From positions 1,205,144-1,269,143 of the forward strand of contig CP030759.1 in NCBI GenBank assembly GCA_003290465.1: a DNA stretch of 64,000 nucleotides, read 5' to 3'. Position numbers and translations under genes: made by a program. This DNA comes from Candidatus Sumerlaea chitinivorans. Its GTDB lineage: Bacteria > Sumerlaeota > Sumerlaeia > Sumerlaeales > Sumerlaeaceae. Below are positions 4,670-29,389 of the stretch, in pieces (the first letter of the stretch is position 1; every line of letters begins with the position of its first letter). The notes under the pieces were generated by a model that was not told where the DNA came from, did no database searches, and worked only from the letters and a program-made list of their open reading frames with translations.

Positions 4670-6064
4670 CTATTGTTTGCTACGGAAAGCGCCGATGAAC
4701 GCATCCAGTTCACTACGGAACTTGGTTAGGTAGGGGGTAAAGTCGGGATCCTGCGGCACAAACATTTCAATCTCTATAAGCTTTGGGGCAATGCTGACAA
4801 TCTTGCCATCTTCGACTTCCACGATCGCGTGACCGATTTGCCGTCCTTCGAAGCCTCCCGTGAGGACCCACGTGTTGCCAACGCGTTGGGCGTTGTTCAT
4901 GTAGTAGTCCTTCGCCTTGCCGGCAGTAAACTCTCCGCACACCACGATGGCAATGCTCTTAGCGGTATCGCCTAACTTTTCAAGCAGCGCGGGGACATCC
5001 TCGCGCGTGTAGTACGCCAAAAGAATGATGAGGTCGCTTTCTTTTTTGGCCTTTGGCAGCGTTTCCTTGAGCGCAGCCACTGGATCGGTGATCTCATAAT
5101 CAGGCTGCGGAGCAGTGGGAATGCGACCGTCCACTGGCTTCGTGACCCCAACAATCGCTACACTCACTTTCTTGCCGTTCATGAGCTTGAGCTTACTTAC
5201 GCGATACGCTGGAAACGCTAACTTCCCGTTTTGGGTGCGGACGTTTGCCGAAACAAATGGCAACGAAAAGCTCGTTTGGAGATCCTGTAGAAAATTGAGC
5301 CCACTGCTGAGGTCGGTAGTACCGACATTTACCGCATCAACTTGCATTTTTGCTAAAGCTTCTGCTATGTAACGAACCCCGATTTTGCTCGGCTCATTTG
5401 CGGGCACCCGCAAATAGCCCCCAGCGTCTACCTTGAGCTGCGGCTGGCCCCCTTCGGCAATAAGTTTGGCGATTTTAGCTTCGCGATCAATGCCACCGAG
5501 GGGATGAGCTGGGCAAGAGCAGGGCTCGAGGCTTGAACGACGATTGCTGGAGTGCAGCAACGAGAAGGCGCGTTCCATAGACTGCGGGGCACTCGTGGGG
5601 CGCAGATGGGCCAGCAAAACCTCCATGCTCACGGTCGTCGGCCGGGCTGCAAATTGGGTGGGTTTGCGTTGAGAGGCCTGCCGTGCCCTCATCTGTGCAA
5701 GCGTCTCTGAAGAAATGCTGGTTTGTCGGGGGCGCGTCGTCAAGCCAGCCCGACGCCGCATTTCCATTATCTCGGTCGTGCTAAAGGTTCGCCGTACCAG
5801 TGGTGGGGTGGACATCCGACGTGCTGGTCGCGCAACCAGTGGACCACTCGTTGCGCGTCCCGCTTTCAAGGGCGCCTCGAGACGCTTTTCTTGCCCCAAC
5901 AAAGGGTTTGGGGTTTCCGAAACAGCTGCCGTGCCAGCTACTTGGGCGAGGGCGCCTCCGACGCAGAAGAGCACGAAAACACCCATGAACCATGCCCCCA
6001 CTCGGCGAGCAGGTTTGTCAGCCAATTTCCAACGTCCCAACATCATTATCCTCCTTGAAAACAC
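4670..6064 (-). CDS. Membrane-anchored hypothetical protein with low-complexity linker and C-terminal degenerate 5'-nucleotidase/metallophosphatase-like domain
   Basis: 464 aa; N-terminal hydrophobic segment AWFMGVFVLFCVGGALAQVAG; Arg/Ser/Thr/Pro-rich linker; C-terminal region (LPFVSANVRTQNGK...KVSVAIVGVT...DLIILLAYYT...IAIVVCGE) follows the UshA/5'-nucleotidase N-domain pattern, but positions normally GNHEFD and GHSH read GTTDLS and VCGE. Start codon uncertain. Confidence 0.5.
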   Translation of the reverse strand: MFSRRIMMLGRWKLADKPARRVGAWFMGVFVLFCVGGALAQVAGTAAVSETPNPLLGQEKRLEAPLKAGRATSGPLVARPARRMSTPPLVRRTFSTTEIMEMRRRAGLTTRPRQTSISSETLAQMRARQASQRKPTQFAARPTTVSMEVLLAHLRPTSAPQSMERAFSLLHSSNRRSSLEPCSCPAHPLGGIDREAKIAKLIAEGGQPQLKVDAGGYLRVPANEPSKIGVRYIAEALAKMQVDAVNVGTTDLSSGLNFLQDLQTSFSLPFVSANVRTQNGKLAFPAYRVSKLKLMNGKKVSVAIVGVTKPVDGRIPTAPQPDYEITDPVAALKETLPKAKKESDLIILLAYYTREDVPALLEKLGDTAKSIAIVVCGEFTAGKAKDYYMNNAQRVGNTWVLTGGFEGRQIGHAIVEVEDGKIVSIAPKLIEIEMFVPQDPDFTPYLTKFRSELDAFIGAFRSKQ

Positions 6065-7817: not shown

Positions 7818-8501
7818 TTAGTACGAGTACGCTTCATCCTCAAACACAAGCTTGCCATTCGCGAAACTAAAAACCATTTCCTTGGCTGACTTGAAAGGTG
7901 AACGATAAAGCCAAGTTTCGCGCCGAATGTTCGGCGCAATCGTTGTCGCAATTACTTCGCTTGGGAGGCCATAAACCAAGATGGTTCGCTCCTGATCTGT
8001 GAGCGGACCTTCGTAAACCATGGTGCGGTCCACAAATTGAAATAGGTGATTCAGCCGATGATAAACCCATTCCACGACCAGTTCGCCGCGAGTGGATTTA
8101 TAGGGTCCTCGGAGGTAGTCCGGCTGTCCCCACTCGCGAAGGATTGCTTTCTGCTCTTCGGATAGGACTTCGTCAGGTTGGCGTTTGAGGCGCTTCCCTC
8201 GCATTACATGTTCCACCCCGTGAACGTTCTCATAGTAAGGATACTTACGAAAATGAAGAACGTTATGGGTGTTTTGGGCTGGATAGCGCTTCGTGAGGAT
8301 GGGGCGGCCATCTTCGGTAAAGTCGTACTTGGGGCGTGGCGGACAGACCTGATTCGGCTGATAGCGACTTGGCTGCTCTCCGGATTTCCCCGTGTTAAAA
8401 AACGGGAACGAGAACAGCGGCTTTTGGGCATAAGTTGGCGAAGCCATCAAGATCGGAATAGCAAGGAAAAGAAGACTCCTACTCAGCCACTTGTTGCGCA
8501 T
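7818..8501 (-). CDS. Hypothetical secreted protein
   Basis: 227 aa; signal peptide MRNKWLSRSLLFLAIPILMASPTYAQ; no recognisable catalytic motif. Confidence 0.5.
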   Translation of the reverse strand: MRNKWLSRSLLFLAIPILMASPTYAQKPLFSFPFFNTGKSGEQPSRYQPNQVCPPRPKYDFTEDGRPILTKRYPAQNTHNVLHFRKYPYYENVHGVEHVMRGKRLKRQPDEVLSEEQKAILREWGQPDYLRGPYKSTRGELVVEWVYHRLNHLFQFVDRTMVYEGPLTDQERTILVYGLPSEVIATTIAPNIRRETWLYRSPFKSAKEMVFSFANGKLVFEDEAYSY

Positions 8502-10815: not shown

Positions 10816-11955
10816 TCACGGCAGAGCATCGAGCAGTTGGTCGAGTTCCGACTCATCATTGTAAAAATGCGGGGAGACCCGCAAGAAGCCCCGCCGAGCA
10901 GCAATGAGAATCTTGCGCTCCTGAAGTTGCTGAACGATTTCGGAAGGGGAGATCCCTTCCTTGATGAAACTCACAATTCCCGCGCGGCTGGCCACGTCTG
11001 TCGGTGTGATGATTGAGTATCCCTTTCTTCGAACCCCTTCGATTACATACTCCGTGAGCTCCTGAACTCTGGCACCGATTCGCTCGAGTCCCACGTCAAG
11101 AAGAAGGCGGAGAGAACTTCCTAAAGCATGAATGGTCATCAAGTTATGGGACCCTTCCTCAAAACGCCGCGCATCTGGCTTATACGGCTGATCGTAGTTG
11201 TCGTAATCCTGCGGATTGGCAAGACCACACCAACCACACATGTTCAGATTCAGCTCCGGGATCCGCGAGCGCCGCACGTAAAGAATACCACACCCCTCAG
11301 GCGCCAAGAGCCACTTGTGGCCATCTGCTGAGAGAAAATCGACAGGAATTTCCTGAACGTCCAAAGGTAGAACGCCCAAGCCTTGGATAGCGTCCAAGAA
11401 GAACATCACGCCGCGCTCGGTACAAATCTGGGCCAAAGCTGCGATGTCGTTGCGCACCCCCGTGCCATATTCCACCCATGAGACCGCGAGGAGACGGGTT
11501 CGCTCATCTATTGCAGCAATAACGTCATCCAATCGAAAACGGTAATCCGGCTGTTCAGCAACCAGTCGCAACTCAACGCCCCGCTCAGCCAGATTTCGCC
11601 AAGGGTGAACATTTGCGGGGAACTCATGGGCAAACCCAACAATGTTGTCACCGGGGCGCCAGTTAATCGAGTTCGCAATAATTAGGATCCCGTGCGTGGT
11701 GTTGTGGGTGAAACAAATATCGCGAGGTTCAGCATTGATAAGGCGAGCTGCAGCCTCCCGCGCCTGTGCCATTCCATGCAGCCATGCGGCATAGTTCGCC
11801 GGACCTTCCTCAGCAGCATCTCTGGCGAATTCTGTGATCGCCATCTGCGTGGAAACAGGGATAGGCGCCACACCTGCATGGTTGAGAAAAACGTACTGCT
11901 CCTTGATTGGAAACTCGCTTCTCAGATCGAACGGAAACTCAGTATTCTTGCTCAT
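10816..11955 (-). CDS. Class V aminotransferase / cysteine desulfurase-family PLP enzyme
   Basis: 379 aa; FLNHAGVAP N-terminus, SADGHKWLLAPEGCGILYV (PLP-lysine motif), overall length and pattern of aminotransferase class V. Confidence 0.75.
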   Translation of the reverse strand: MSKNTEFPFDLRSEFPIKEQYVFLNHAGVAPIPVSTQMAITEFARDAAEEGPANYAAWLHGMAQAREAAARLINAEPRDICFTHNTTHGILIIANSINWRPGDNIVGFAHEFPANVHPWRNLAERGVELRLVAEQPDYRFRLDDVIAAIDERTRLLAVSWVEYGTGVRNDIAALAQICTERGVMFFLDAIQGLGVLPLDVQEIPVDFLSADGHKWLLAPEGCGILYVRRSRIPELNLNMCGWCGLANPQDYDNYDQPYKPDARRFEEGSHNLMTIHALGSSLRLLLDVGLERIGARVQELTEYVIEGVRRKGYSIITPTDVASRAGIVSFIKEGISPSEIVQQLQERKILIAARRGFLRVSPHFYNDESELDQLLDALP

Positions 11956-12128
11956 ACAATCGTAAGAATCTAAGAGCTTGCGTGAATTGCAAGCGGGGAA
12001 CGCGCTCCCATAGAGCCCTTCGCCTCAGAAACACTTCGCAGAAGTTGCATTTTGATGATTGACATCGACCGATGGAGCCACTTGGAGAAATTTTAGTTTC
12101 AAAACAATGGGCTTAGACAAAATCTGCG

Positions 12129-13178
12129 ATGAAAGAATTCCCTGACGAGCTGTCGACCGAACACGAATTAGAAGAGCTGCTGAGTGAGCCAACCCCCGAG
12201 ACAGTTGAAATGTTTCGTCGCCTTTCAGGCGATCTGATGATTCTTGGTGCCTCAGGGAAAATGGGTCCTTCGCTTGCACGTATGGCGGCGAAAGCTGCCC
12301 GCCGTGCAGGTAATCCCATGCGAGTCATTGCAGTGGCCCGTTTCTCTGATCCTCAGGCCCGGACGCTCCTCGAGAACGATGGTATAGAAACCATCGCTGT
12401 TGATCTACTGGATTATGAACAGGTCCTTCGCTTGCCGCGCGCGAAGTATGTCCTGTATTTAGTTGGGCGCAAATTTGGTAGGGCGGGCACGGAGACGTTG
12501 ACGTGGGCAACGAATGCAGTTGTCCCTGCCTACTTGCTCGAAGCCTGCCGCGGCTCTTATGTCGTTGCGTTTTCGACCGGGTGTGTTTACCCCTTAGTAC
12601 CCGTGCAGAGCCAAGGCTGTTCCGAGCAGGATCCGGCCGGCCCGGTTGGCGAATATGCGTGGTCGTGTTTAGCTCGGGAGCGTGTGTTCGAGTTTCTAAG
12701 TACGCGTTACGACACGCCTGTTCTCCTCTATCGCCTCAACTATGCCAATGCCGTACGTTATGGCGTGCTCACGGATCTGGCCACCACGATAGCGCGTGGC
12801 GAGCCGGTGGACCTGTCCGTAGTAGCTGTCAATCTGATCTGGCAGGGCGACGCGAACAATTTTGCCCTGCGGTGCCTCGAGTTCGCAAAAGTTCCACCCG
12901 AGGTATTGAACATCACCGGACCTGAGAAATGGTGGATTCGCGACCTCGCTATGGAAATCGGGCGTCTGATGAATAAGCCAGTGACTTTTTGCGGCTCCCC
13001 CACTGGTGTCGCGTATCTCAGTGATGCTTCGCGTGCCTGTGAACTGTTTGGTGCGCCTCGCGTCCCGATCCAAGTGGTTACTCGGTGGACCGCTCGTTGG
13101 GTAGCATCCGGCAAACCCATCTTAGGAAAACCAACCCACTTCCAAGTTACCGATGGTCAATTTCTCGATCCTGCATAA
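12129..13178 (+). CDS. NAD-dependent epimerase/dehydratase-family protein (Rossmann fold)
   Basis: 349 aa; glycine-rich dinucleotide-binding motif ILGASGKMG near N-terminus; extended-SDR-like length. Substrate not assignable. Confidence 0.6.
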   Translation: MKEFPDELSTEHELEELLSEPTPETVEMFRRLSGDLMILGASGKMGPSLARMAAKAARRAGNPMRVIAVARFSDPQARTLLENDGIETIAVDLLDYEQVLRLPRAKYVLYLVGRKFGRAGTETLTWATNAVVPAYLLEACRGSYVVAFSTGCVYPLVPVQSQGCSEQDPAGPVGEYAWSCLARERVFEFLSTRYDTPVLLYRLNYANAVRYGVLTDLATTIARGEPVDLSVVAVNLIWQGDANNFALRCLEFAKVPPEVLNITGPEKWWIRDLAMEIGRLMNKPVTFCGSPTGVAYLSDASRACELFGAPRVPIQVVTRWTARWVASGKPILGKPTHFQVTDGQFLDPA

Positions 13179-13202
13179 ATTGTGAGGAGGAAATCTGCCC
13201 TT

Positions 13203-14276
13203 ATGTCGCTTCCCATGCCTGATTCGGAAGTTCTTGCCACGCTGCGCCGGGGGGTCGTGATTCCGGCAAGTCCGCTCGCTCTGGACGCGGAGAAAAGGCT
13301 CGATACGCGTCGTCAAACGGCCCTCATGCGCTATTACTGCGCAGCAGGCGCTGGCGGGGTTGCTGTAGCAGTGCACACCACGCAGTTTGAGATTCGAGAC
13401 GCCGCAACTCGCATGTTCGAACAGGTGCTGGAAACCTGCTCGCGTGCGATCGATGAAGCCGGACGTGCCCAGCGCCGACGAATTGTAAAAATCGCAGGCG
13501 TGTGTGGGCGTACAACGCAAGCATTAGACGAAGCCCGCAAAGCTGCAGATTTCGGCTACGACGCCGCACTACTCAGTCTTGCTGCTCTTCAGAATTCATC
13601 CGAGGAAGAGCTAATTCGGCATTGCCAAGCAGTGAGTCAGATCATTCCGCTCGTCGGTTTCTATCTTCAACCCGCCGTAGGGGGCAGAATCTTGCCCTTC
13701 TCATTCTGGCGTCGGTTCGTAGAAATAGAAAACGTCGTCGCTATCAAGATTGCCCCATTCAATCGCTATCAGACGCTTGACGTCGTGCGAGCAGTTGCAC
13801 TGGCCGGTCGGGATGAGGAAATTGCCCTCTACACGGGCAACGACGATAACATCATTGCGGATTTACTCACCCCATTTACGCTGCAAACCCAAGCGGGACC
13901 CGTGCGCCTACGCATTCGCGGTGGACTCTTGGGACAGTGGAGTGTTTGGACGCGCACCGCGGTCCGGCTTCTCCATGAAATTCACGAGGCGTTGGCAACG
14001 TCAGACCACATCCCAATCAGCTTACTTGAAAAGAATGCCCAGCTAACCGATGCAAACGCGGCCATCTTTGACGCTGCCCACGGTTTTGCCGGGTGCATCG
14101 CAGGCATCCACGAAGTCCTGCGACGGCAAGGGCTGCTCGAATTCACACATGCGTTGGATGAGAAGGTTCAACTCTCGCCGGGGCAAGCGGAAGAAATCAC
14201 TCGGGTGACGCGCGACTACCCGTGGCTCCCAGATGATGACTTCGTGAGTGCACACCTTGCCGAATGGCTCGACTGA
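13203..14276 (+). CDS. Dihydrodipicolinate synthase-family (class I aldolase, TIM-barrel) protein
   Basis: ORF 13182..14276; start re-assigned to ATG at 13203, preceded by AGGAGG. DapA-family pattern with candidate Schiff-base lysine in VVAIKIAPFN. 4-bp spacing from upstream epimerase gene suggests an operon. Confidence 0.6.
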   Translation: MSLPMPDSEVLATLRRGVVIPASPLALDAEKRLDTRRQTALMRYYCAAGAGGVAVAVHTTQFEIRDAATRMFEQVLETCSRAIDEAGRAQRRRIVKIAGVCGRTTQALDEARKAADFGYDAALLSLAALQNSSEEELIRHCQAVSQIIPLVGFYLQPAVGGRILPFSFWRRFVEIENVVAIKIAPFNRYQTLDVVRAVALAGRDEEIALYTGNDDNIIADLLTPFTLQTQAGPVRLRIRGGLLGQWSVWTRTAVRLLHEIHEALATSDHIPISLLEKNAQLTDANAAIFDAAHGFAGCIAGIHEVLRRQGLLEFTHALDEKVQLSPGQAEEITRVTRDYPWLPDDDFVSAHLAEWLD

Positions 14277-14391: not shown

Positions 14392-14772
14392 TTATGGAGA
14401 GGGCACAGGAATGATGCGTTTGACTGAGACACGCGGGCGACCCGCGGGGACGTGTGCGGTCACGACCAACGATTGCGTGGTAGCCTCTGCTCCGTCATTA
14501 AGGAGTGAGACCTCCACCACACCGGATTCAAACTCAAATCGGCTGGTCTGTGTCGTCGCGCGATCGCTCGCGTGGGCTTGTACTGCGCACACTGCACCTC
14601 TTGCCAGCCACTCCGCCTGTGCGCGCTCGACGGCGGCCGCAACGCGCTTAACGCTACGTACGTGAGACTCGGCAAGTCCGAACATAAGTATCGTCAGCAC
14701 GGCAAGAGCCCCCACAAGGTAGAGCATCGTCGTGCCGCGCTGCGTTTTCAATTTGACCTCGCTCGACCTCAT
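14392..14772 (-). CDS. Minor pseudopilin-like protein (GspK/J-like?)
   Basis: 126 aa; leader MRSSEVKLKTQRG followed by hydrophobic helix TTMLYLVGALAVLTILMFGLA; Tyr instead of Glu at +5; last gene of the pilin-like trio. Confidence 0.45.
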   Translation of the reverse strand: MRSSEVKLKTQRGTTMLYLVGALAVLTILMFGLAESHVRSVKRVAAAVERAQAEWLARGAVCAVQAHASDRATTQTSRFEFESGVVEVSLLNDGAEATTQSLVVTAHVPAGRPRVSVKRIIPVPSP

Positions 14773-15338
14773 CAGCGCTTCTCCTCCTTTCCTGCCCCAG
14801 TCAACGTCGCGGCCAAGGGGTCAGGCACTGCGTAAACTGTCAGCTGCTGGGTACTATGAAAAGCGTCGAACCCATCGCGAGTGGCTATTTCTAATACGAA
14901 TGCGCCCTCGCGCGTTTGAGACACCGAGACCGTTGTGAGATCCGATGCTAACCGCTGCTTGGCGATCGGGCGTCTGTCCGCTCCGTAACGCGTGCGTATT
15001 ACGCCGAACGTCCCCTCAGGGTTTTGCGTGATCTGGTACTCACATCTTGGAGCAACGGGATCCGCCTGCTCGAGCACCAACAGACGTTTTTCAGTAGCGG
15101 ACGTTTCCTGAAGGTGCCCTCGAATGGTCTTGTGGATGTCCGTACGCCATGCCTGCTCTAAGGTCACAAGTTCTTCCAAACGGAGTTGCTGGGCAGTCAC
15201 CCCCCGCTCGAGGCGGATCGTCATGATAAACACGGAGAAGACGCTGCCCATGAGAATTGCCATGGCAGCGATGACAATGAGCATCTCTATAAGCGTCACG
15301 GCCCGGTCAAATCGTTGCTTCAGCCAGTTCTTATTCAT
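14772..15338 (-). CDS. Prepilin-type N-terminal cleavage/methylation-domain protein (pseudopilin)
   Basis: 188 aa; basic leader MNKNWLKQRFDRA followed by VTLIEMLIVIAAMAILMG (class III signal with Glu at +5), but Ala rather than Gly at -1. Confidence 0.65.
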   Translation of the reverse strand: MNKNWLKQRFDRAVTLIEMLIVIAAMAILMGSVFSVFIMTIRLERGVTAQQLRLEELVTLEQAWRTDIHKTIRGHLQETSATEKRLLVLEQADPVAPRCEYQITQNPEGTFGVIRTRYGADRRPIAKQRLASDLTTVSVSQTREGAFVLEIATRDGFDAFHSTQQLTVYAVPDPLAATLTGAGKEEKR

Positions 15339-15799
15339 GGCTGCCTCCCTTGGTGTAGGCGTGTTGTCATGGTTACGCGCAAAGGACGATGCGGGAACGC
15401 CCCAAACATGCAGGATGCAGTTGCCGAAAGCTCCAGCATTCCGTGCTCGCGTCGTCGCACCCGCAACACGGTCTGTTCATTCGGGGCAAGGTCGGCTGCG
15501 GTCGGATTCGCAAAGGGATGTTCCCCTTCGGTGAGGGTTGCCAGACGCTCCGGCGACGCGACTTTCCACCATTCAAGTTCGTTCTGAGCCAACACACTGA
15601 GCCTTAGGCGTTCTTGGCTCACCCGAGTCCCCATCAGTGCCCGCTCACCGATTGTTAGGAATGCCAGAAATCCGGCGCTGACAATCGCAGCGACGACAAT
15701 CAGTTCAAGCAAGGTTATGGCGCGCGAGCGGTGCAGTGTCAGTTTGAGAAAGATTCGACGTCTGCGTTCCATATCGGCGGTCCTCCTTCTCACAGCCAC
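15335..15799 (-). CDS. Prepilin-type N-terminal cleavage/methylation-domain protein (pseudopilin)
   Basis: 154 aa; leader ...LHRSRA followed by ITLLELIVVAAIVSAGFLAFL (Glu at +5, Ala at -1). Track start is GTG; an in-frame ATG (MERRRR...) lies at 15772. Confidence 0.65.
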   Translation of the reverse strand: MAVRRRTADMERRRRIFLKLTLHRSRAITLLELIVVAAIVSAGFLAFLTIGERALMGTRVSQERLRLSVLAQNELEWWKVASPERLATLTEGEHPFANPTAADLAPNEQTVLRVRRREHGMLELSATASCMFGAFPHRPLRVTMTTRLHQGRQP

Positions 15800-16824
15800 T
15801 TATGCAACGTTTGGAAATGAGCAAAAATGCTTGCGACGTACGAGCCGACCAAGAGCCCGAGAACGCAAATAAGTGCGGGCTCGAGAAGGCGGTAAGCCAC
15901 CTCGAGATTGCCAAAGTCTTCCAGACTGCGTGCCGCAAGCCTACGGAAATACTGCTCCACATTCTCGCGCTCCTCAGCGCGCTCCAAGAGCCAGACTTCG
16001 GATCTGGGGAACCACGAGACCTTTGCGAGTCCTCGAGAAAGTGGCGTTCCGTGCTCGATCGCTTCGCGCAGTTCCTTCACGGTCTCGCCGACCAATGGCA
16101 AATCTGGCGTCTCGAGGATCGTGGCGAGCGCCTCGCGCAGGGGCACGCCCTCACTCAGCATAACATCCAGCATCGCCGAAAGGTGGTAGAGTCGCGCATG
16201 ACGCAATGTACGACCATAGACGGGAAGGCGGAGCAAAAGGCGATCTGCGGTAGCTGACCCTGGCCGAAAAACGCTAACAACGGTTAGCCCAACGCTGGTC
16301 AACCACACGAGCACGATGACCACCGTGAGGCAAAGCAAAGCGAGACGTACTGGCAAGAATCCGTGTAAATACGCCTCTCGCTGCCCTGTTGGGATGAATG
16401 CAAGAGCCACCTCCTGCAGCGGCCCGTACACGAACGCATAAAACACGACCGAGATAGCTGCAAGCAGCGTGAGAACTACCGCTGGGTAGACCAAGGCAGC
16501 CAAGAGAGCGTTCTGCAAACGACGCCGCATTTGAAGATACTCAAGGTATTTACTTAGGGCCTGTGGGAGCCGCCCACTGACTTCGCCAGCTCGAGTGATC
16601 GCGAGAAGGACAGGAGGTAATCGGTCGGCAACTCGTGCCAGCGCTTCGCTCAACGACTGACCAGCTTGGAGACCATTACTTACCACGTCCAGCCTCTTAC
16701 CAAGCGGACTCTGGCCAAGGCGCTCTTTCGCGCATCTCAGTGCGTCCGTCAGATCGACTCCCACTGCCCCAGCTCCAGCCAGTTCACTGACGAGTAGCTC
16801 AATTTCCTTCCAGCGGTAAGACAT
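15790..16824 (-). CDS. Type II secretion / type IV pilus platform protein, GspF/PilC family (paralog D)
   Basis: 344 aa; two T2SSF-like repeats (LQAGQSLSEALARVADRLPPVLLAITRAGEVSGRLPQAL and LSEGVPLREALATILETPDLPLVGETVKELREAIEHG) separated by TM helices; ATG preceded by GAGGAG. Confidence 0.75.
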   Translation of the reverse strand: MSYRWKEIELLVSELAGAGAVGVDLTDALRCAKERLGQSPLGKRLDVVSNGLQAGQSLSEALARVADRLPPVLLAITRAGEVSGRLPQALSKYLEYLQMRRRLQNALLAALVYPAVVLTLLAAISVVFYAFVYGPLQEVALAFIPTGQREAYLHGFLPVRLALLCLTVVIVLVWLTSVGLTVVSVFRPGSATADRLLLRLPVYGRTLRHARLYHLSAMLDVMLSEGVPLREALATILETPDLPLVGETVKELREAIEHGTPLSRGLAKVSWFPRSEVWLLERAEERENVEQYFRRLAARSLEDFGNLEVAYRLLEPALICVLGLLVGSYVASIFAHFQTLHKWL

Positions 16825-16834
16825 GGTTCACTCC

Positions 16835-18088
16835 TCACGTGTAAGGGATGCAGGTCACAATTTTGAAAATGGCGAGGTAGACAGTGGTCGCGAGTCCAAC
16901 ACCGCTTAAGAGAACAATGCTGTGAGCAGAGATGCCGAGCGTGTGTGCGAGAGCATGCCGTTGCTTTACCCAAATCTCTAACTGGGCCCTTCCTGCGGTG
17001 AGCAGAACATTCGGCATGGAGTCTGAGCTCTGTGCACGAGCAAGCAGATTTGAGAACTCTCTGGAAAGTTGCGGAACAATTGCGAACACTTCCTTCAGCG
17101 GCATACCGGACGCGAGTCGCTTCTCCAACTTAGGCAAAAATGCCCGCAACACAGGATCGCGAGACGCCTGCACAGCAGCCCGCAGGGCCTGCTCTATCGA
17201 CACGCCATACTTTAGGAATGTACCGAGAGTGAGCGAGAAGCGTATGAGCGCCTCTTGCCATGAAAACTCACGCAGCGGGCCGGCAATCGCGCGCACCATG
17301 CGACACGCGAGCGCACTTCGCCGATAAACGAAGTGCAGGACACGAATCGCCACTGCCAAGACGAGAACACCTACCACTACGTAGGACCACACGGCAAGCA
17401 ACCCATAGGAGAACGGCCAAACCTTCGCCGGTGCCACATCGGACTGCAGGAATTCTTGTTCCAAAACGCTGAATCGCAAAAGGATCAGCCAAGAAACGGC
17501 GAGAAGAACGAGACCCTCGGAATATGCAAGTGCTAGGTGGCGATTTGCGCCAAACCTGGACGGACTCGAGAGAGCCGGCTCTGATAACATGCTGAGCGCG
17601 GCACTCAGTGAGTCGCCTTTTTCGGCAGTTGTGATGACTGCAAGATCTGAGCTCGGGAAGATTGCCGGTCGCTTGCTCAGCGCGTTGGACAGAGGCGCTC
17701 CTGTGCGGAGTTCAGCCGCTATCTCGGTGAAAACTTTCTTCATGGCCTGTGGCAGGTCGCTGTTGGCAAACCCCTCGGTGATGCGTGCGGGATCGCCCCC
17801 AAGCTCGATGCCATCGCGCAAGTAGCAATAATAGGCTCTTCGTAGCACCGCCACGCGATACCGCGCATAGCGCGACTGTGCGAACAGGTGAATGTACATC
17901 ACCCAAACAGTAAGCAGAAGCAGCGCTAAGCCAAAGCGCACCATCTGATCCGCAGTACTCCTTGGCACACCCTCAACCTCTGTCGCTGCAGCAAGCACTT
18001 CTCTCCAAATGAAAACCGAACCGAGCGCGAGGGGCACAAACAGTATTGCCAGAACGATCGAGGATTTCGCCTTCAACAACATGGCCAT
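16835..18088 (-). CDS. Type II secretion / type IV pilus platform protein, GspF/PilC family (paralog C)
   Basis: ORF 16835..18313; start re-assigned to ATG at 18088 (MAMLLKAKSSIVLAILFVPLALG). Two T2SSF-like repeats (...LAVITTAEKGDSLSAALSMLSE; ...RAAVQASRDPVLRAFLPKLEKRLASGMPLKEVF) plus TM helices. Confidence 0.7.
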   Translation of the reverse strand: MAMLLKAKSSIVLAILFVPLALGSVFIWREVLAAATEVEGVPRSTADQMVRFGLALLLLTVWVMYIHLFAQSRYARYRVAVLRRAYYCYLRDGIELGGDPARITEGFANSDLPQAMKKVFTEIAAELRTGAPLSNALSKRPAIFPSSDLAVITTAEKGDSLSAALSMLSEPALSSPSRFGANRHLALAYSEGLVLLAVSWLILLRFSVLEQEFLQSDVAPAKVWPFSYGLLAVWSYVVVGVLVLAVAIRVLHFVYRRSALACRMVRAIAGPLREFSWQEALIRFSLTLGTFLKYGVSIEQALRAAVQASRDPVLRAFLPKLEKRLASGMPLKEVFAIVPQLSREFSNLLARAQSSDSMPNVLLTAGRAQLEIWVKQRHALAHTLGISAHSIVLLSGVGLATTVYLAIFKIVTCIPYT

Positions 18089-18131
18089 CGCCTCGCGTGG
18101 AAAATTAGCTGGCCAGCCTGCGCCCCCATCC

Positions 18132-19397
18132 TCACGCCTCCCCCACGATGCGTCGGGCTTCAGCAAGTGTGATAAGGCCAGCAGCAACACACTGAAGAGC
18201 TGCCTTCCAAAGTGAGGTGGTCCCGCTTGCGAGCACCAGTTGGCGCAGCTCTGCTGTTGGGGCTTTGCGTACAATTGCCTCGCGAAGTGGATCGTCGGGC
18301 ACGGAAACCTCAAAGCCAGCTCGACGCCCGCGATATCCCGTTTCCGAGCACGCTGGGCATCCCCCTACCTCGTACAAATGGTCTGGAATAGGAAGCCCTT
18401 CCCCCGCCCATAAGTTTTCCGTACCCGTTGCCGAAATCGGGCGCTTACATTGCGCGCACAGCTGTCGAGCGAGCCGCTGGGCAACGACCCCAGAAATGGC
18501 GCCCGCCAGAAGAAATGGCTCAATCCCCATGTGCAAGAGACGGGCGTAAACCTGCGCTGTCGTGCCACTGTGAATCGTCGAAAGCACCAAATGACCGCTG
18601 AGGCCTGCTTGCATGACGGTGGCGGCTGTTTCCTCGTCGCGTATTTCCCCAACGACAATCACGTCTGGGTCCATTCGCAGAAGAGTGCGAAGACCCGTGA
18701 GAAAGGTGAGCCCGCCCGTCGGATCGATCTGTGTCTGATTGACCCCATCTATCTCCTGCTCGATGGGATCCTCAAGAGTCGCGATATTCGGGATAAGGGG
18801 AGAACGATCGAGGAGAAAGCGCAGGGCTGCGTAGATCGAGGTGCTCTTGCCGCTGCTACAAGGGCCGGTAAATAGTATGACACCGTGCGACCGAAGAAGG
18901 GCTCGCTGAAGCCGCCCCAAATCAGTCGCAGACAGGCCCAACTCTTCAAGTCGGCGAGGAGCGATCTGGGTAGGGAGCCGCAGGACAGCCTTCTCGCCGT
19001 GGAGGGTTGGCATGAACGCGGCCCGAAGCGCCAAGCCATCATCGTTTCCGAGCCGACCGTCCTGCGGCAAACGCTTTCGATACGTAAGAACCTTCGCAAG
19101 CATTTTCAGGCGCGCTATGACGTTTTCGCCGCGCTTGCGCGACAATCTTGCGACAGGGATCAGTTGACCATCCACCCGGTAGCGGACGAGGTAATGATCT
19201 GGTCTTGCTTCCAAATGAATGTCACTTGCGCGCAACTCCTGAGCGGCGTTCAAGATCCTGTCCGTCAATTCGGGGACGGCCATTTCGTCTAAGGCCCCCA
19301 ACTGTTCGATTTCTTGCTTCAGGAAAGCAAGAACCGTTGGCGGCTCATGCTGGTCCGCTTCTGCTGCCACTCTGTTTTCCTTCGTGATTTCCGTCAT
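18132..19397 (-). CDS. GspE/PilB-family secretion ATPase (short form)
   Basis: Walker A FTGPCSSGKSTSIYA, Walker B-like DPDVIVVGEIRD, His-box HLVLSTIHSGTTA, C-terminal tetracysteine CAQC...CPAC. Track ORF starts at TTG 19538; ATG at 19397 (MTEITKENR) has an AAGGA RBS, giving about 421 aa. Confidence 0.8.
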   Translation of the reverse strand: MTEITKENRVAAEADQHEPPTVLAFLKQEIEQLGALDEMAVPELTDRILNAAQELRASDIHLEARPDHYLVRYRVDGQLIPVARLSRKRGENVIARLKMLAKVLTYRKRLPQDGRLGNDDGLALRAAFMPTLHGEKAVLRLPTQIAPRRLEELGLSATDLGRLQRALLRSHGVILFTGPCSSGKSTSIYAALRFLLDRSPLIPNIATLEDPIEQEIDGVNQTQIDPTGGLTFLTGLRTLLRMDPDVIVVGEIRDEETAATVMQAGLSGHLVLSTIHSGTTAQVYARLLHMGIEPFLLAGAISGVVAQRLARQLCAQCKRPISATGTENLWAGEGLPIPDHLYEVGGCPACSETGYRGRRAGFEVSVPDDPLREAIVRKAPTAELRQLVLASGTTSLWKAALQCVAAGLITLAEARRIVGEA

Positions 19398-19557
19398 ATC
19401 TTTAAGGTCCTTCGCCTGAGTGTTAGACGTCCAAGCCATGCGATTCGTTGACACTTGCCTCGCAATTGCTCTATCCCGCTCCAAATCCCCGTTCCTTGCT
19501 GCCGCTCCTCGCACACCTTGACTTCGCAAAGTTGGCAAATCGGTGGAGAATCCTGGT

Positions 19558-20610
19558 TTACCGCATCCCGAAGATCCAAAACATGAGCAACGGCCAGACG
19601 GTGAGGACGTATATGCCCATGAGTAAGCCGAGGAACGCCATCATCATGGGTTCGATTGCGCGAAGGGAGCGCCCAAATTCGTCAAGTTCATCAAGCGTGC
19701 GCTGGGCAAGGTCCTGAAAGTATTCGGTGACTGTGTCCTGAAGAAAGGCTTGTTCCATTAACCAGCACTCGTGGGAGGGGAACCATTCTTCTTTTCCAAG
19801 CGCCTCTGTGGGCGAAGCCCCACGAGCGAGCGTGTCACGTAGTTTTTTGCACACTCCTGCCAAAAGTGGTTCTTCACGCATTTGGGCAATTGCCTCGAGT
19901 CCGTCCCGCAAGCAAGCTGCTCCTCCCGAAACGAAGGTCCCCATTAGGGTAGCAAAATGGTACAAATTTGCGCGTGCGACCACGACGCCAAAGAATGGTA
20001 GGGTCGTAAGAAAACGTTCGAAGCGGGCTCTCCGCGGAGCAGAGAGGATAAGAGCAGACACTGCAAAAGTACTGAGGGCCAACACTACCAACGTACACAG
20101 GACTGCCCACCGCAAAAGGCGTACGGGTAACAAAAACTCAGTGCTCTGGGATTCAAATCCGCGGCTCATGGCTGCAAATTCCAACAATGCATACGGTTCA
20201 TTCGAAAGCGACGCGAGATACGACTCACAAACAATCATCAGAATGGCCGCGATCACCAAAACCACCACGGGATAGGTAATTGTGCGCAGGTAGGCACTCT
20301 GAATACGCCGGCGGGCTTCGACGTACGCGACAATCCGCCGAAACCACACATCCAGCTCGCCTGAGGTCTCGCCCGCAGCGATCAAGCTAATGATCGGACG
20401 AGGCAGCGGGCAGCGGGCCTTGGTCAAGGCTTCGCTCAAGCTGAGGCCTAATCGAAGGAATTCCTCTGTCACCTCAAGTGCTTGAGCAAATCTACGATTC
20501 TTCACTCCCCTACGGATAGCCGGGAGCACATCTACCGGAGCCAGTCCGACCGAAAGTCCGGCACTAAGTTCCCGTACAAAGAGCTCCAAATCTCGCCATG
20601 AGGTTCGCAT
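19558..20610 (-). CDS. Type II secretion / type IV pilus platform protein, GspF/PilC family (paralog B)
   Basis: 350 aa; two T2SSF-like repeats (RFAQALEVTEEFLRLGLSLSEALTKA...IISLIAAGETSGELDVWF; LMGTFVSGGAACLRDGLEAIAQ...LMEQAFLQDTVTEYFQDLAQ), three predicted TM segments; ATG preceded by AGGAGGG. Confidence 0.75.
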   Translation of the reverse strand: MRTSWRDLELFVRELSAGLSVGLAPVDVLPAIRRGVKNRRFAQALEVTEEFLRLGLSLSEALTKARCPLPRPIISLIAAGETSGELDVWFRRIVAYVEARRRIQSAYLRTITYPVVVLVIAAILMIVCESYLASLSNEPYALLEFAAMSRGFESQSTEFLLPVRLLRWAVLCTLVVLALSTFAVSALILSAPRRARFERFLTTLPFFGVVVARANLYHFATLMGTFVSGGAACLRDGLEAIAQMREEPLLAGVCKKLRDTLARGASPTEALGKEEWFPSHECWLMEQAFLQDTVTEYFQDLAQRTLDELDEFGRSLRAIEPMMMAFLGLLMGIYVLTVWPLLMFWIFGMR

Positions 20611-20620
20611 CGGTTCCCTC

Positions 20621-21844
20621 CTACTCGAATGGCACGATAGTTACGACAGAGAAGAGGCTGAGATAGATGGCTGACACCAAAATGATGCCAAAAGCTAAGA
20701 CGGCGAGATGCACAATCGCTGCAATAAGCTGCATCATTAGAGCCCGTTGAAGTTTCCACTTTTGCTGAAGCTCGTAGGCACCTGCGCAAAGGACCTCAGG
20801 CGCGGTTTCCGACACGCTAGCCCGCATAAGCACCTGATGAAACACCGTGGGAAGAGACGGAATCCCAGCGAAGAGATTCGGCAACGAAGCACCGGCCCTG
20901 ATTCGTTCCCGTAGGAGCGGAAGGCATCGCTGCAGAACCGGGTCCCCCGTGGCTCGTACTGCCGAGTCAAATGCAGACAAGGGATCTACGTTCCATTTCA
21001 GAAGCATTCCAAGCGTGTGTGCAAAGCGGGCCAACTTTCGAAGCCAAAGAAGTTCGGCCAGCCGTTCACTTCTGTTTGCAAGAAGGCGCCGAACCCAGAG
21101 GCTTCGTCGTTCGAGAACACGAATTCCCCACAGAAGAACAAGCAACAATACCAGACCCTGCCATAAAGGAACCGAGTATCGAACGACCTGCTGCGTGAAA
21201 ACGGGTGGTTGCTTGTGGAGATCCGCGTAGAGTTCCGCAATCCTCGGCAAGGTTTGAATGGCGAATAGGCCAAGGATAAAAGAGAATACGATGAGCTCTC
21301 CAACGATGATCCCAACCCACACCTTGCGGCTAAAACCATGCTCGCGATCCACTAACTCCTCACTTGCGAGAAACCGCAAAGCCTCGGGAAGGCTGTCCGA
21401 ATCCTCTGCAGCGGAAATGACTGCAAGGTGCGCACCGGGGACGGGCGCGCGTCGGAACAAGGTGGGTTTTAACGTCTCCGCCAGCGAAGCACCAACCTCC
21501 AATCGCTTCGATGCCCGTAGCAACAGGCGCCGCACGCGCCATGGCATCTTGATGGAGCTTGAGGCAAAGGCACGGGTAGCGTCGGCAAGTCTGCCGCGTA
21601 CCAAGCACGCTGTCCCGAGGTAACGGTAAAACTGATACCTCCAGCCATAGGGCGCCCCTGCGGTAGATCTCCCTAAGAGCAAGGCAAAAGCGTAAACAGT
21701 AAGTAAAATCCCACCTAAGAACAAGATTGAGTCATGAAACACACGAAAGAGGTTCCGGTCCGCCTGTTCCACCCACGCGATGAGCATGACGTAGAGATAA
21801 GCGGGTAAGAGAACCCAGAACAGATATCGTGGCACTCGACTCAT
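20621..21844 (-). CDS. Type II secretion / type IV pilus platform protein, GspF/PilC family (paralog A)
   Basis: 407 aa; N-terminal TM helices then two T2SSF-like repeats (LEVGASLAETLKP...HLAVISAAEDSDSLPEALRFLA; FDSAVRATGDPVLQRCLPLLRERIRAGASLPNLF...LMRASVSETAPEVL); ATG preceded by AAAGGGGA. First gene of the cluster. Confidence 0.7.
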   Translation of the reverse strand: MSRVPRYLFWVLLPAYLYVMLIAWVEQADRNLFRVFHDSILFLGGILLTVYAFALLLGRSTAGAPYGWRYQFYRYLGTACLVRGRLADATRAFASSSIKMPWRVRRLLLRASKRLEVGASLAETLKPTLFRRAPVPGAHLAVISAAEDSDSLPEALRFLASEELVDREHGFSRKVWVGIIVGELIVFSFILGLFAIQTLPRIAELYADLHKQPPVFTQQVVRYSVPLWQGLVLLLVLLWGIRVLERRSLWVRRLLANRSERLAELLWLRKLARFAHTLGMLLKWNVDPLSAFDSAVRATGDPVLQRCLPLLRERIRAGASLPNLFAGIPSLPTVFHQVLMRASVSETAPEVLCAGAYELQQKWKLQRALMMQLIAAIVHLAVLAFGIILVSAIYLSLFSVVTIVPFE

Positions 21845-22088: not shown

Positions 22089-22967
22089 CTAATCGCATGG
22101 GACAGGAGTAGATTCCCCGCGCGTCCCCTCGAGTGTGGCCACGGCAGCGGAGCCAAGGATCATCGCCGCGCCGATCCAGAAGCGCATCGGCATTGTGTCC
22201 CCCAGGAATAGAGTTCCAAACATGGCGCTCCAAACCACCACAGTAAGCGAGAGCAATCCGCCTTGCGCCGCCGTCAAAACCCGGTAGGCATTCGTCATCA
22301 GGAGCTGAGCGACCGTTGCAAATGCCACCATGCCGACCACAAGCAGCCATTCCCGAGCGTGCGGAACCACAAAGTGCAATGCGGTGGGAAAAGCCGTCAC
22401 AATGGTCCCTACGAGGGTAAAGAAAATCACAATCCAGCCACTCGACTCGGTTCCGCGAAGGAGCCGCACGCTGACGATCGCTGATCCGGTCAGAGCCCCC
22501 GCCGCAAGTCCGACGAGGTCCCCAAAGCTAAACGCAAAGTGTCCAGTTGAGAAATCCAAGGTGAGAAGGGTCCCCACAACCCCGAGTGGAAGCGACCAGA
22601 GGGTAAGCCGATGTGGTTTTTCGCGCAGTTCAAACCACGCAAAGAGGGCCGACCACACGGGATACGTATAGCAGTAGAGCGTTGCCTTCGGTAGCCCAAT
22701 GTGATCGATGGCGTAGAAATAACAAAGCAGCGCGGCGGTACCAGCGACCCCACGCCACAGAAGGCGTCGGTAATTCCCGGGACGTCCAAGGGGGCGACGT
22801 GTGACCACGTAGAGGCACACGACGAGGATGAGACCGAAGAGACTGCGGAAGAAGACTTTCTCTATGCTCGGTAAACGCGGGAGCAGGCGCGTACACAACG
22901 CCATCAAGGCAAAACAGAACGCGGAGGCAAGCATAAGGAGCTGACCGCGGAGAACTCCGTGACGCAT
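22089..22967 (-). CDS. EamA/DMT-family transporter
   Basis: 292 aa, about 10 TM helices, duplicated EamA-like halves (LMLASAFCFALMALCTRL...; ...SAMFGTLFLGDTMPMRFWIGAAMILGSAAVA). Confidence 0.75.
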   Translation of the reverse strand: MRHGVLRGQLLMLASAFCFALMALCTRLLPRLPSIEKVFFRSLFGLILVVCLYVVTRRPLGRPGNYRRLLWRGVAGTAALLCYFYAIDHIGLPKATLYCYTYPVWSALFAWFELREKPHRLTLWSLPLGVVGTLLTLDFSTGHFAFSFGDLVGLAAGALTGSAIVSVRLLRGTESSGWIVIFFTLVGTIVTAFPTALHFVVPHAREWLLVVGMVAFATVAQLLMTNAYRVLTAAQGGLLSLTVVVWSAMFGTLFLGDTMPMRFWIGAAMILGSAAVATLEGTRGESTPVPCD

Positions 22968-22971
22968 CGCT

Positions 22972-24660
22972 TTAGCGTTCCTTTATCGTGTCTGGGAGGG
23001 TGGGCCGAGCCGATGCACGAGGCTTATAGAGGAAAAATTGCCACAGGTGCCCTCCTTGAATCACCCGATCGAGCCGGTATGTGTCGCGTAAAGCTTCCCG
23101 CATTCCGGGCGTGAACGCATCCGTGTAGGCGTCCGAAAACAAGTCCGTCGTGGACGCAAAAATTGTGAAACGCCCGGCCCGAATATCTTTCAGAAACCTT
23201 GATTCGTCCCAACGACCTTGCCGCGCCAATTCACTCATAATAAACGGCTGAAACAGCACAGGCTTTTCTGCGAAGAGCGCATAGGCGGCCACCTCGCTCA
23301 CGACGTCCCCCGAAGCTCGGGCGAGTTCGCTCGTTAAGCGAGCTGCAGCTTCGAAATCCGCGGGTGTCGGCCGCTTCCATTCGCCGAAAATCACCTTTTC
23401 CCAGCGGTGCAGGTGCACTGCGTGAAGTGCGAGGAGAAACGCCATTAGGAGAATCCACGCCTTCCATGAGTCGGACTGCGCGGCGGTGCGTTTCCGTAAT
23501 CCATATCCGATAGCAACCCCAACCGCAAGGCTCCACGCTGCAAGAGGTTCAAGGAGATAATTCTCCGCGCTTCCAGCTTTAGGAAGAGAGAGGAAATTCG
23601 TGACAGACAACATCTGGTAAGCGACGCAAGCGATAAGAAGGAAGCGCGTTCGCAAAAGTTCCTGTTCCGCCCTCGAGGTCACAGCCGTCGAGACAGGATT
23701 AGAAGAGGCCGCCGCGTCCAGTGTGCCATGAATCGTCGCGAGAGGACGCCAGGACCGGACAAGTTCACGCACAAGAAGGGCAAAAGCCAGGAGCCCGGCG
23801 AGCAGCCACCAACGGTAGAAGCGCCACACATGGGCCGCCCACACCAGCAAGTCCGGCCAGTGATAGCGATTCATGTTGTACCAAATTGTGTGAACAGCGA
23901 ATTGCCCACCCGTAAGAGCACTCAGGGCAAGGAACGGCAGGCCTGCCGCAGCTACAAATGTAACCGCGTAACGTCGAAAGGCAGCACGGTCCCACACCCA
24001 CAAAGCAATTAGCGAAACAACGGGCACGGAATACATCGTCTGCTTGGTGAACAAAGCCAGTGCAGCAAGACATGCTGCGCCGATATGCATCCACTTTTTC
24101 TCGGAACCCCCAAGCAGAAGCGCCAAGCTCGACAGCGTCAGCGCTAAGGCGAGCAAATCTACGCGAAAGTAGGCCGACCAGTTGTAGCACTCAAAGGTGG
24201 CTAAGAAAAGAAGCGGAGCAAGCAGAGCAGCAAAGATCTGACGCGTGAGTGCATAGACGATGGTGAACAGTAGAATGCCGGTGGAGAACACCGACAGTGC
24301 AGTGATGAGGCGCCCGACAAAGAAGCTGGGAGTGTGAAGATTCGTCAGGCTTCCTGCCACCCAGAGATAGAAGGGAGGATAGGTCCCAACGAGATAGGGG
24401 TAGTCGTTCAGTTCGCGGTAGAGCGGTTTGCCTTGGGCAACACGTACAGCTTGAGCGAGGAGTGCCCCTTCTTCGTTGTCCAGTTGAAGCATCGGATGAG
24501 CAAGCGCCTCAGTCACACGTACATAAACGTGTGGGATCAGCACCGCCAGCCCCAACACACATAAGACTACGAGCCCCCGAATGAGTATGGCACCGAAGTC
24601 GTCGGGCCATCGGTTTTCCTGCGTTGCTTCCTCCTCAACCTGCACAGGATTGTTCATCAT
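22972..24660 (-). CDS. Polytopic membrane glycosyltransferase (GT39/ArnT/PMT-like fold)
   Basis: ORF 22972..24717; likely start at MMNNPVQ. Multi-TM N-terminal region with Tyr/Trp-rich loops and a C-terminal soluble domain, typical of lipid-linked-sugar-using glycosyltransferases. Family assignment is by pattern only. Confidence 0.5.
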   Translation of the reverse strand: MMNNPVQVEEEATQENRWPDDFGAILIRGLVVLCVLGLAVLIPHVYVRVTEALAHPMLQLDNEEGALLAQAVRVAQGKPLYRELNDYPYLVGTYPPFYLWVAGSLTNLHTPSFFVGRLITALSVFSTGILLFTIVYALTRQIFAALLAPLLFLATFECYNWSAYFRVDLLALALTLSSLALLLGGSEKKWMHIGAACLAALALFTKQTMYSVPVVSLIALWVWDRAAFRRYAVTFVAAAGLPFLALSALTGGQFAVHTIWYNMNRYHWPDLLVWAAHVWRFYRWWLLAGLLAFALLVRELVRSWRPLATIHGTLDAAASSNPVSTAVTSRAEQELLRTRFLLIACVAYQMLSVTNFLSLPKAGSAENYLLEPLAAWSLAVGVAIGYGLRKRTAAQSDSWKAWILLMAFLLALHAVHLHRWEKVIFGEWKRPTPADFEAAARLTSELARASGDVVSEVAAYALFAEKPVLFQPFIMSELARQGRWDESRFLKDIRAGRFTIFASTTDLFSDAYTDAFTPGMREALRDTYRLDRVIQGGHLWQFFLYKPRASARPTLPDTIKER

Positions 24661-25879
24661 CCGCCTCTTGAGGAGCAGAATGAATGGTCTGGGTCGCCGC
24701 AAGCCGGTGGAGGCCACGCAACACCGCGGCGCCTACAACGTCACCGCGTAAAGCTTCCATGCACATGGGCTGCTTGTCGCAGGTCTTTAAATAGCATGGG
24801 CTGCAGCTGAAATCGGTCACAATTTTCTCACCACGATCATAAAGCTCAATTTCAACGGGGGAAGTTGAGCCAAAGATTGCGACGACCCATTTCTGTCGGG
24901 CAATCGCGATATGCATTGCCAGACTGTCGGAGCTCACGACTAAATCACAGGCATCCACCACACCGACGAACTCGTCGAGCGTATTGCCGCAGCCGGTGTC
25001 GAAGAGATAGGGACAGCGCTGAAGGATCTGGGCGTTGAGTTCGCGCTCGGCTTCACCTCCGAGAAGCAGCAACGATACGTGTGGAAGGTGCGCATGCAAG
25101 AACTCGCACAACTCAACCCACCCTGCTAAGGTCCACTGCTTGGTTCGAAAAACTGAGCCGCAACCCGTGTTGATCCCGATGCGCGGTGGCTGGGGTACCC
25201 CGGCGAGAATCTCGGCGCGACGACGCTGACCGTTTTCAGTCAAAAAAAGTTGGTAGGGATCGCGCGCGTATGGCAGGCAGGCCATTTCGGCAATGATTTC
25301 TGGATACGTTTTCCGATTCTTGCGAAATTTCAGCTCGTCGCTCACCCCGAGAAGCAAGGCATATTCCGACTCAGGATTGAATACCGTCGGCGTATTCCAT
25401 TGCGTAGGTGCAAAACCAAGGTGTCTACGGGCAGGAACCTTTCCCGCAAGTGCAAGCGGCTCACTTTCCTTCTCAAAGTTTAAGAGAAGATCAAACGTCT
25501 CGCGCATGAGGGTTTGAACCGTTTCGCCGTCGAGGGCCAACAACCGGTCTATATTCGGGTTTGCCATCAGCAACGGAATGGACGGAGGGGCAGTCACCCA
25601 CGTGATATGGGAGCGGGGATACGCTCGGCGCAACGGAGCCAAAAGGGTTGTCGTGCGGAGCACATCGCCCATGGCACCGGTTTTGATGATCAGGATGCGC
25701 ACCTGTCCGGCCTCACCAAAGGCGCCCGGGGCGGTCACCTTGACTGGACTTGCCGGGTTGCCAACCACCTCGCTCCGCCGCTCGTACCATTGGCAATCTC
25801 GGCATTCATTGCCGTACTTGCACGGCTTGTAGCCGTTGTAGAGAACGCAATCGAATTTGATGTCTCTGAATTCAAGCAT
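24635..25879 (-). CDS. Glycosyltransferase family 9 (ADP-heptose:LPS heptosyltransferase-like) with Cys-rich N-terminal extension
   Basis: 414 aa; GT9 pattern VRILIIKTGAMGDVLRTTTLLAPLRRAYPRSHITWV and C-terminal ...CDLVVSSDSLAMHIAIARQKWVVAIFGSTSP; N-terminal ~40 aa MLEFRDIKFDCVLYNGYKPCKYGNECRDCQWY contains 5 Cys. Confidence 0.75.
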   Translation of the reverse strand: MLEFRDIKFDCVLYNGYKPCKYGNECRDCQWYERRSEVVGNPASPVKVTAPGAFGEAGQVRILIIKTGAMGDVLRTTTLLAPLRRAYPRSHITWVTAPPSIPLLMANPNIDRLLALDGETVQTLMRETFDLLLNFEKESEPLALAGKVPARRHLGFAPTQWNTPTVFNPESEYALLLGVSDELKFRKNRKTYPEIIAEMACLPYARDPYQLFLTENGQRRRAEILAGVPQPPRIGINTGCGSVFRTKQWTLAGWVELCEFLHAHLPHVSLLLLGGEAERELNAQILQRCPYLFDTGCGNTLDEFVGVVDACDLVVSSDSLAMHIAIARQKWVVAIFGSTSPVEIELYDRGEKIVTDFSCSPCYLKTCDKQPMCMEALRGDVVGAAVLRGLHRLAATQTIHSAPQEADDEQSCAG

Positions 25880-26039
25880 CGTTGCTGCGGACTAAACGCA
25901 ACAGTAACAGAATGTTCAATTGCATTTCAGGTGGGGAACGCACAGGACCCAACACCTCAGATTTCGCCTCGAGCGAGCTCTGGCCCCCATCGGGTTGTCA
26001 GAACTTCACACGGTGGGAACGCCATGCCACCGGCTTTCG

Positions 26040-29053: not shown

Positions 29054-29389
29054 CCTGAGCCTTGGTCTTAGCCACTCCGGTTCACAAATCAATGCGAATG
29101 CACTAACGCGCGAATAACAAAAGCATTCGCAATGGGGCAGATTGAACCGCGCGATGACAATGAAAACAGGTGTTTTGCAATTCAGCTACCTGAACTGGAG
29201 ATCAGTTTCGGCAATGCATAGAAAGGCCGATGGATTGGATCGTTACAAACGTACATTCGTTTATCTTGATCGTCGAATCACAGGAACAATGAAGTCGTAA
29301 GTAATGTCAGAATAACCGAGAAGCGCTGGCCGCGCGCTCTCAAGTGAGGGGTGTGATCGCAGTCGAAGTCCACTGTGGAGGTGTGTACG

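Follow-up and report, generated by a model that had tools for sequence, protein, structure and literature searches.

Results

The 64-kb stretch of DNA analysed here (the window) encodes an eight-gene minus-strand cassette in which two pairs of GspF/PilC-like genes and one GspE/PilB-type assembly ATPase precede three genes for small pilin-like proteins that close the cassette (Table 1). Each of the three pilin genes has a Shine-Dalgarno sequence before its start codon (GGAGGA, GGGAGG and AGGAGG), and each stop codon shares bases with the next start codon (ATGA, TGATG), which points to coupled translation. The open frame of protein 1 covers 15335-15799, and the original prediction took it from GTG 15799; the downstream ATG 15772, which lies 8 nt past GGAGGA and is also called in public assemblies (145 aa), is most likely the true start, and the predicted junction is the same from either codon.

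Table 1. Genes of the filament cassette, from first to last; in junctions, here and in the text, a slash marks the cleavage point
Gene	Position in window	Strand	Length (aa)	Remarks
GspF/PilC-like Fa1	20621..21844	-	407	First cassette gene; paralog of Fa2; Pfam T2SSF E 1.6e-13
GspF/PilC-like Fb1	19558..20610	-	350	Paralog of Fb2; Pfam T2SSF E 1.6e-27
GspE/PilB-type assembly ATPase	18132..19397	-	421	ORF reaches 19538; Pfam T2SSE E 5.8e-97
GspF/PilC-like Fa2	16835..18082	-	415 as called	ORF reaches 18313; Pfam T2SSF E 6.2e-14
GspF/PilC-like Fb2	15790..16824	-	344	Directly upstream of pilin genes; Pfam T2SSF E 2.2e-32, two domains
Protein 1, GspI/PilV-like minor pilin	15335..15772	-	145	Predicted junction RSRA/ITLLELIVV
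Protein 2, GspJ/PilW-like minor pilin	14772..15338	-	188	Predicted junction FDRA/VTLIEMLIV
Protein 3, GspK/PilX/ComGG-like N-terminus	14392..14772	-	126	Junction TQRG/TTMLYLVG

We read the residue at -1 of proteins 1 and 2 with Glu set at +5. Protein 1 then has the leader MERRRRIFLKLTLHRSR followed by A/ITLLELIVV, and protein 2 has the leader MNKNWLKQRFDR followed by A/VTLIEMLIV; in both, Ala occupies -1 and Glu occupies +5, and the residue at +1 is Ile in protein 1 and Val in protein 2. The leader of protein 3, MRSSEVKLKTQR, is followed by G/TTMLYLVG, which places Gly at -1 and Tyr at +5 and lacks Glu5. The corresponding N-termini are MERRRRIFLKLTLHRSRA/ITLLELIVV, MNKNWLKQRFDRA/VTLIEMLIV and MRSSEVKLKTQRG/TTMLYLVG, or in longer readings MERRRRIFLKLTLHRSRA/ITLLELIVVAAIV, MNKNWLKQRFDRA/VTLIEMLIVIAAMAIL and MRSSEVKLKTQRG/TTMLYLVGALAVL. 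The prepilin motif used by PilFind is [GAS]-[uncharged]4-[DE] (PMC3244431), and proteins 1 and 2 follow this rule within about 35 N-terminal residues (RSRA/ITLLE and FDRA/VTLIE), with a permitted residue at -1, four uncharged residues and an acidic residue at +5. Protein 3 fits the rule at -1 and fails it at +5, like GspK and ComGG.

Scanning the 64-kb window for [GAS]-x4-E followed by a hydrophobic run in a plausible gene returned proteins 1 and 2 only. We do not regard the pattern as a product of chance because these are the sole two matches in the window, GspE and GspF genes lie upstream, protein 2 scores above profile thresholds, and the arrangement is conserved at eight further loci. The minus strand also reads GFTFFE near 54391, but that frame is non-coding, lies opposite a SurA-like gene and matches the motif by chance. 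A different start codon that would create a Gly-Phe/Met junction is ruled out because the leaders of proteins 1 and 2 hold no in-frame Gly, and an assembly or sequencing error behind the Ala residues is ruled out because Ala is also present in three independent assemblies (L001, L002 and L003) and in an 88%-identical variant (P0002).

Profile searches place the three proteins at graded distances from known pilins. Protein 2 exceeds the N_methyl thresholds of both Pfam PF07963 (24.6 against 21.2) and TIGR02532 (21.5 against 16.3), and protein 1 falls just under them (17.9 and 12.4, respectively); seven of the eight sequences in the protein 1 alignment, the window protein included, match TIGR02532 at E <= 0.1. 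Protein 3 matches neither PF07963 nor TIGR02532, and its profile found nothing among Pfam and PDB sequences. Its N-terminus does match that of NCBIfam T2SS_GspK (NF037980) at E 2.3e-4, with 20.8 bits against a cut-off of 130, and it matches ComGG_2 at E 3.2e-3. In an alignment of protein 3 and seven orthologs (A5), the first 54 positions of the GspK model are matched by seven of eight sequences, namely the window protein and six of the orthologs, with a best E of 2.6e-8. Protein 2 scores 19.3 against GspJ (TIGR01711), below the cut-off of 64.85; protein 1 itself has no match to GspI (TIGR01707), to which its orthologs match weakly, and ComGD/E/G-type matches to the pilin-like proteins are weak.

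Structure prediction supports the pilin assignment of the two Ala-bearing proteins. An AlphaFold2 model of protein 2 informed by 19 homologs (pLDDT 85.7) begins with a helix of 54 residues and continues with eight beta strands, and protein 1 was modelled from its single sequence. Both models are predicted lollipop pilin folds, in which a long N-terminal alpha-helix sits on an antiparallel beta-sheet, and they resemble the crystal structures of GspI (protein 1) and GspJ (protein 2). The original prediction had described all three ORFs at 14392-15799 as pilin-like, with Ala at -1 and Glu at +5 in two of them and a GspK-like third that has Gly at -1 but not Glu at +5; all three points are supported. 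Its proviso that these might be ordinary signal-anchored proteins lacking a pilin fold finds no support in the modelled folds of proteins 1 and 2. The trio is thus GspI-like, GspJ-like and GspK-like in canonical gene order. Proteins 1-3 resemble GspI/J/K in gene order and, for proteins 1 and 2, in fold, and are not members of these families by sequence score; we describe them as working like GspI/J/K because the equivalog scores lie far under the cut-offs.

The platform genes are the more unusual feature of the locus, ahead of Ala at -1. Two Fa+Fb pairs flank one GspE ATPase (15790-21844, minus strand), and since Fa1 and Fa2 are 32% identical, and Fb1 and Fb2 31% identical over 342 aa, the duplication is old. 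Related loci have instead a GspE gene followed by one long Fa (647-728 aa) and one Fb, the long Fa being extended at its N-terminus by an additional membrane region of some 360 aa. For a type IV filament system, it is unusual that one ATPase serves a heteromeric or duplicated platform. The ATPase scores 371.8 bits against TIGR02533 GspE and 333 bits against PilB, each under its equivalog cut-off, and Fb2 matches TIGR02120 GspF at E 5.8e-37, also under its cut-off. The cassette has no gene for a major pilin, secretin, GspC/L/M or PilMNOP, and Pfam scans of the other sizeable ORFs of the 64-kb window detected no secretin, GspC/L/M, PilMNOP or GspG-like major pilin; the genes that they identified have housekeeping and envelope functions. 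The combination of GspD, GspC/L/M and GspG with GspE/F that defines canonical type II secretion is therefore not present within the 64-kb window.

The cassette belongs to a conserved neighbourhood. Synteny was recovered in eight further loci, nine with the window, and the shared layout comprises an ABC exporter, GT9, PMT-like and EamA genes, GspE, two GspF genes, the three pilins, and DHDPS-like, epimerase and aminotransferase genes. In the window, the minus-strand side at 22089-28412 holds the ABC exporter, a GT9 heptosyltransferase-like gene, a PMT_2-like glycosyltransferase and EamA, and the side at 10816-14276 holds the DHDPS-like gene, the epimerase, a class-V aminotransferase and an ECF sigma factor. 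The neighbourhood is strongly conserved in the six related loci that are long enough (L004, L005 and L007-L010); six related loci have the minimal E-F-F-I-J-K layout, and the contigs of L011-L013 end short of the ATPase side. The ABC exporter is 790 aa long and has a weak STAS-like N-terminal match. Three minus-strand ORFs of the window have no Pfam match (4670-6064, 464 aa; 7818-8501, 227 aa; 28352-29092, 246 aa), and the 227-aa ORF and an adjoining ORF of 145-158 aa are kept beside the ECF sigma factor in related loci.

GCA_017161645.1 (JADFCU) and GCA_026416205.1 encode the same proteins or nearly identical ones. Public labels for these proteins (L001 and L002) conflict, reading Candidatus Hydrogenedentes/Hydrogenedentota in some records and Candidatus Sumerlaea chitinivorans in another. 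The MAGs JADFCT-JADFCW belong to Sumerlaeota and were recovered from sediments of hot springs and lakes (PMC8092238), and JADFCU and JADFCV are placed in Sumerlaeota by both their source paper and GTDB. The DNA of the window is thus that of Sumerlaea chitinivorans or of a very closely related organism. Comparing the GspE of the window with species-representative genome contigs recovered two Sumerlaeota loci and no match above 56% identity, so the species of the window itself appears to be absent from, or masked in, the species-representative collection.

We next compared the residue at -1 across orthologs. When 1.84 billion representatives were searched exhaustively with HMMER, protein 2 had only 20 relatives among them, and word-index searches with proteins 1 and 2 returned near-identical sequences only. 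In the protein 2 alignment (n=19), Thr+2, Leu+3 and Glu+5 are invariant, and -1 is Gly in 14 sequences, Ala in four and Cys in one; Glu5 is likewise invariant in the protein 1 family. In a neighbour-joining tree of protein 2, every Ala form clusters with Gly forms, which implies at least four independent Gly-to-Ala changes, each of them a single base (GGC to GCC), and no other visible change in the leader accompanies Ala. Over the nine syntenic loci, the 27 sites at -1 comprise 19 Gly, seven Ala and one Cys, with no large residue at any site (Table 2). Change that recurs but stays within the small residues is what one would expect if the site were still recognised and cut.

Table 2. Residue at -1 in the three pilin-like proteins of the syntenic loci
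Locus	Protein 1	Protein 2	Protein 3
Window	A	A	G
L004	G	G	G
L005	G	G	G
L007	A	A	G
L009	G	G	A
L011	G	A	A
L012	G	C	G
L013	G	G	G
L015	G	G	G

Gly and Ala prepilins stand side by side in single cassettes, as in the window (A,A,G), L009 (G,G,A) and L011 (G,A,A). The one Cys, in the protein 2 ortholog P0027 (L012:574-1107, plus strand; KRRSC/FTLIEQLIV), is not covered even by the permissive [GAS] rule; the metagenome contig that carries it is 1.3 kb long, and an assembly error is a possible source.

No A24 prepilin peptidase was detected in the 64-kb window by Pfam scans or by a multi-pass ORF scan for GxGD. At the level of the phylum, 14 of 16 Sumerlaeota MAGs in Data Set S1 of Fang et al. (KEGG) have a single pilD entry (K02654), another has two and the last has none, counts that describe these 16 MAGs and are not tied to GCA_003290465.1 in particular. 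According to the same data set, cpaA/tadV is missing from 15 of the 16 MAGs, and a MAG holds up to eight pilB, seven pilC and eight pilT genes, 13-15 gspG-like genes and one or two secretins. A lone, general PilD shared by many systems is consistent with simple tolerance of Ala and speaks against a dedicated divergent enzyme.

Discussion

Ala at -1 has clear precedent. The view that Gly at this position is invariant, which the original prediction took as established, is too strong: the accepted motif permits [GAS], PilD is described as an enzyme that 'cleaves at a glycine or alanine' (PMC3244431), and in S. pneumoniae top-down mass spectrometry found ComGC cut after Ala15 with its new N-terminus methylated (PMC3694846). 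Ala at -1 in proteins 1 and 2 is a known, tolerated variant, and comparison of the orthologous sequences points to normal processing of both proteins. We consider it likely that the trio is the minor-pilin set of a conserved, Sumerlaeota-type type IV filament cassette in which Ala at -1 is equivalent to Gly and enters the same processing pathway.

Gene order, motifs, pilin folds (predicted for proteins 1 and 2) and the interchange of Gly and Ala among orthologs are observed or computed, and from them we infer how cleavage, methylation, formation of an I-J-K complex and supply of a major subunit could proceed. Proteins 1-3 would enter the inner membrane via class III signal peptides, and an A24 peptidase PilD encoded at an unlinked site in the genome would remove their basic leaders of 13-18 residues, which end in Ala for proteins 1 and 2 and in Gly for protein 3, and probably N-methylate the new residue at +1. 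The processed proteins may then form an I-J-K-type tip or priming complex on the GspE/GspF machine, beneath which the ATPase and platform would polymerise a major pilin whose gene lies elsewhere.

The main rival explanation, which we judge distinctly unlikely, is that Ala at -1 makes a poor PilD substrate and that slow or partial cleavage throttles the level of a minor pilin or its entry into the filament. Changing Gly to Ala at -1 of P. aeruginosa PilA reportedly reduced cleavage, in work attributed to Strom and Lory in 1991, and Ala is said to have been the only substitution at -1 to retain some. Proteins 1 and 2 both carry Ala in the window and in L007, and this joint occurrence could hint at co-adaptation rather than neutrality. 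However, ComGC is an abundant major pilin that is fully processed after Ala (PMC3694846), and close orthologs in the same role have Gly. With at least four origins of Ala on the protein 2 tree and a leader that is otherwise unchanged, near-neutral drift fits better than tuned regulation.

The original prediction had also raised a divergent peptidase and a complete lack of cleavage, and both fare worse. A dedicated enzyme that co-evolved to prefer Ala at -1 would have parallels in archaeal PibD-type peptidases, which take a wider range of residues around the site (PMC4307647), and no A24 peptidase gene was detected in the window; yet a bifunctional-type pilD (K02654) is present as a single copy in 14 of the 16 Sumerlaeota MAGs, of which 15 lack cpaA/tadV, and because Ala and Gly pilins share cassettes in the window, L009 and L011, one enzyme must accept both. 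We therefore hold a dedicated peptidase to be very improbable. Least probable of all is that the proteins stay uncleaved as signal-anchored inner-membrane parts merely resembling pilins. The sub-threshold N_methyl scores of protein 1, the lack of a Pfam match for protein 3 and a cassette devoid of major pilin and secretin would suit such parts, but the lollipop models of proteins 1 and 2 match GspI and GspJ, neither family varies at Glu5, and 27 of 27 orthologous sites have Gly, Ala or Cys at -1 despite repeated change, when a plain anchor would need no small residue exactly five before Glu.

Three known systems come closest to the cassette, and each differs from it in composition. Like GspI-GspJ-GspK (XcpV-W-X, EpsI-J-K), the three genes run in the order I-J-K downstream of GspE/GspF, proteins 1 and 2 have predicted folds close to the GspI and GspJ crystal structures, and protein 3 shares with GspK an N-terminal match and the absence of Glu5. 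In contrast to GspI-J-K, Ala takes the place of Gly at -1 in two members, and protein 3, at 126 aa, lacks the large alpha-helical domain of GspK. Compared with type II secretion as a whole, the cassette lacks GspG/H, GspC/L/M and a secretin, scores far under the equivalog cut-offs, and has two to four GspF paralogs where type II secretion has one. The ComG system is similarly secretin-less and built from an ATPase, a platform protein and pilins; the S. pneumoniae ComGC-GG set includes prepilins with Ala at -1 that are cleaved and N-methylated by PilD in that organism, and ComGG, the last Com pilin, resembles protein 3 in its degenerate motif without Glu5 (PMC3694846). Com operons differ in that they encode the major pilin ComGC together with only one ComGB and occur in monoderm hosts, whereas the window carries genes for outer-membrane biogenesis, among them SurA and a GT9 heptosyltransferase. 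Unlike type IVa PilV-PilW-PilX loci, the cassette has no FimU/PilE/PilY1 or PilMNOPQ genes, and its scores are under the corresponding cut-offs.

A bolder reading, which we regard as unlikely, would make E-Fa-Fb-I-J-K a filament subtype restricted to Sumerlaeota, with a heteromeric GspF platform (in two pairs in the window) and no dedicated major pilin or secretin. The single PilD of the phylum would then be unusually relaxed, accepting Gly, Ala and even Cys, and the residue at -1 would set the processing rate of each minor pilin.

The Ala residues have little bearing on pilin biology, as the accepted prepilin motif already includes Ala at -1 and experiments elsewhere have confirmed it. Their value lies in annotation: HMMs dominated by Gly-Phe junctions under-score such pilins, leaving protein 1 sub-threshold and protein 3 annotated as hypothetical, and minor-pilin sets are consequently overlooked in poorly studied phyla. 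The conserved cassette with its paired GspF paralogs is a modest lead on type IV filament diversity. The locus also provides a natural case in which Gly and Ala, and once Cys, exchange at -1 within one orthologous family, which supports the use of [GAS] over Gly in pilin finders. Pilin-like ORFs in 33 loci from other phyla include few genuine pilins and one more case of Ala, in a Kiritimatiellae MAG (L026:10400-11400, plus strand; JAFGHX010000455.1). There, neighbouring pilin-like ORFs near a GspE homolog read RPRAG/FTAIEMAMV and VRHRA/FTLVELMFA, so mixed usage of Gly and Ala at -1 is not limited to Sumerlaeota.
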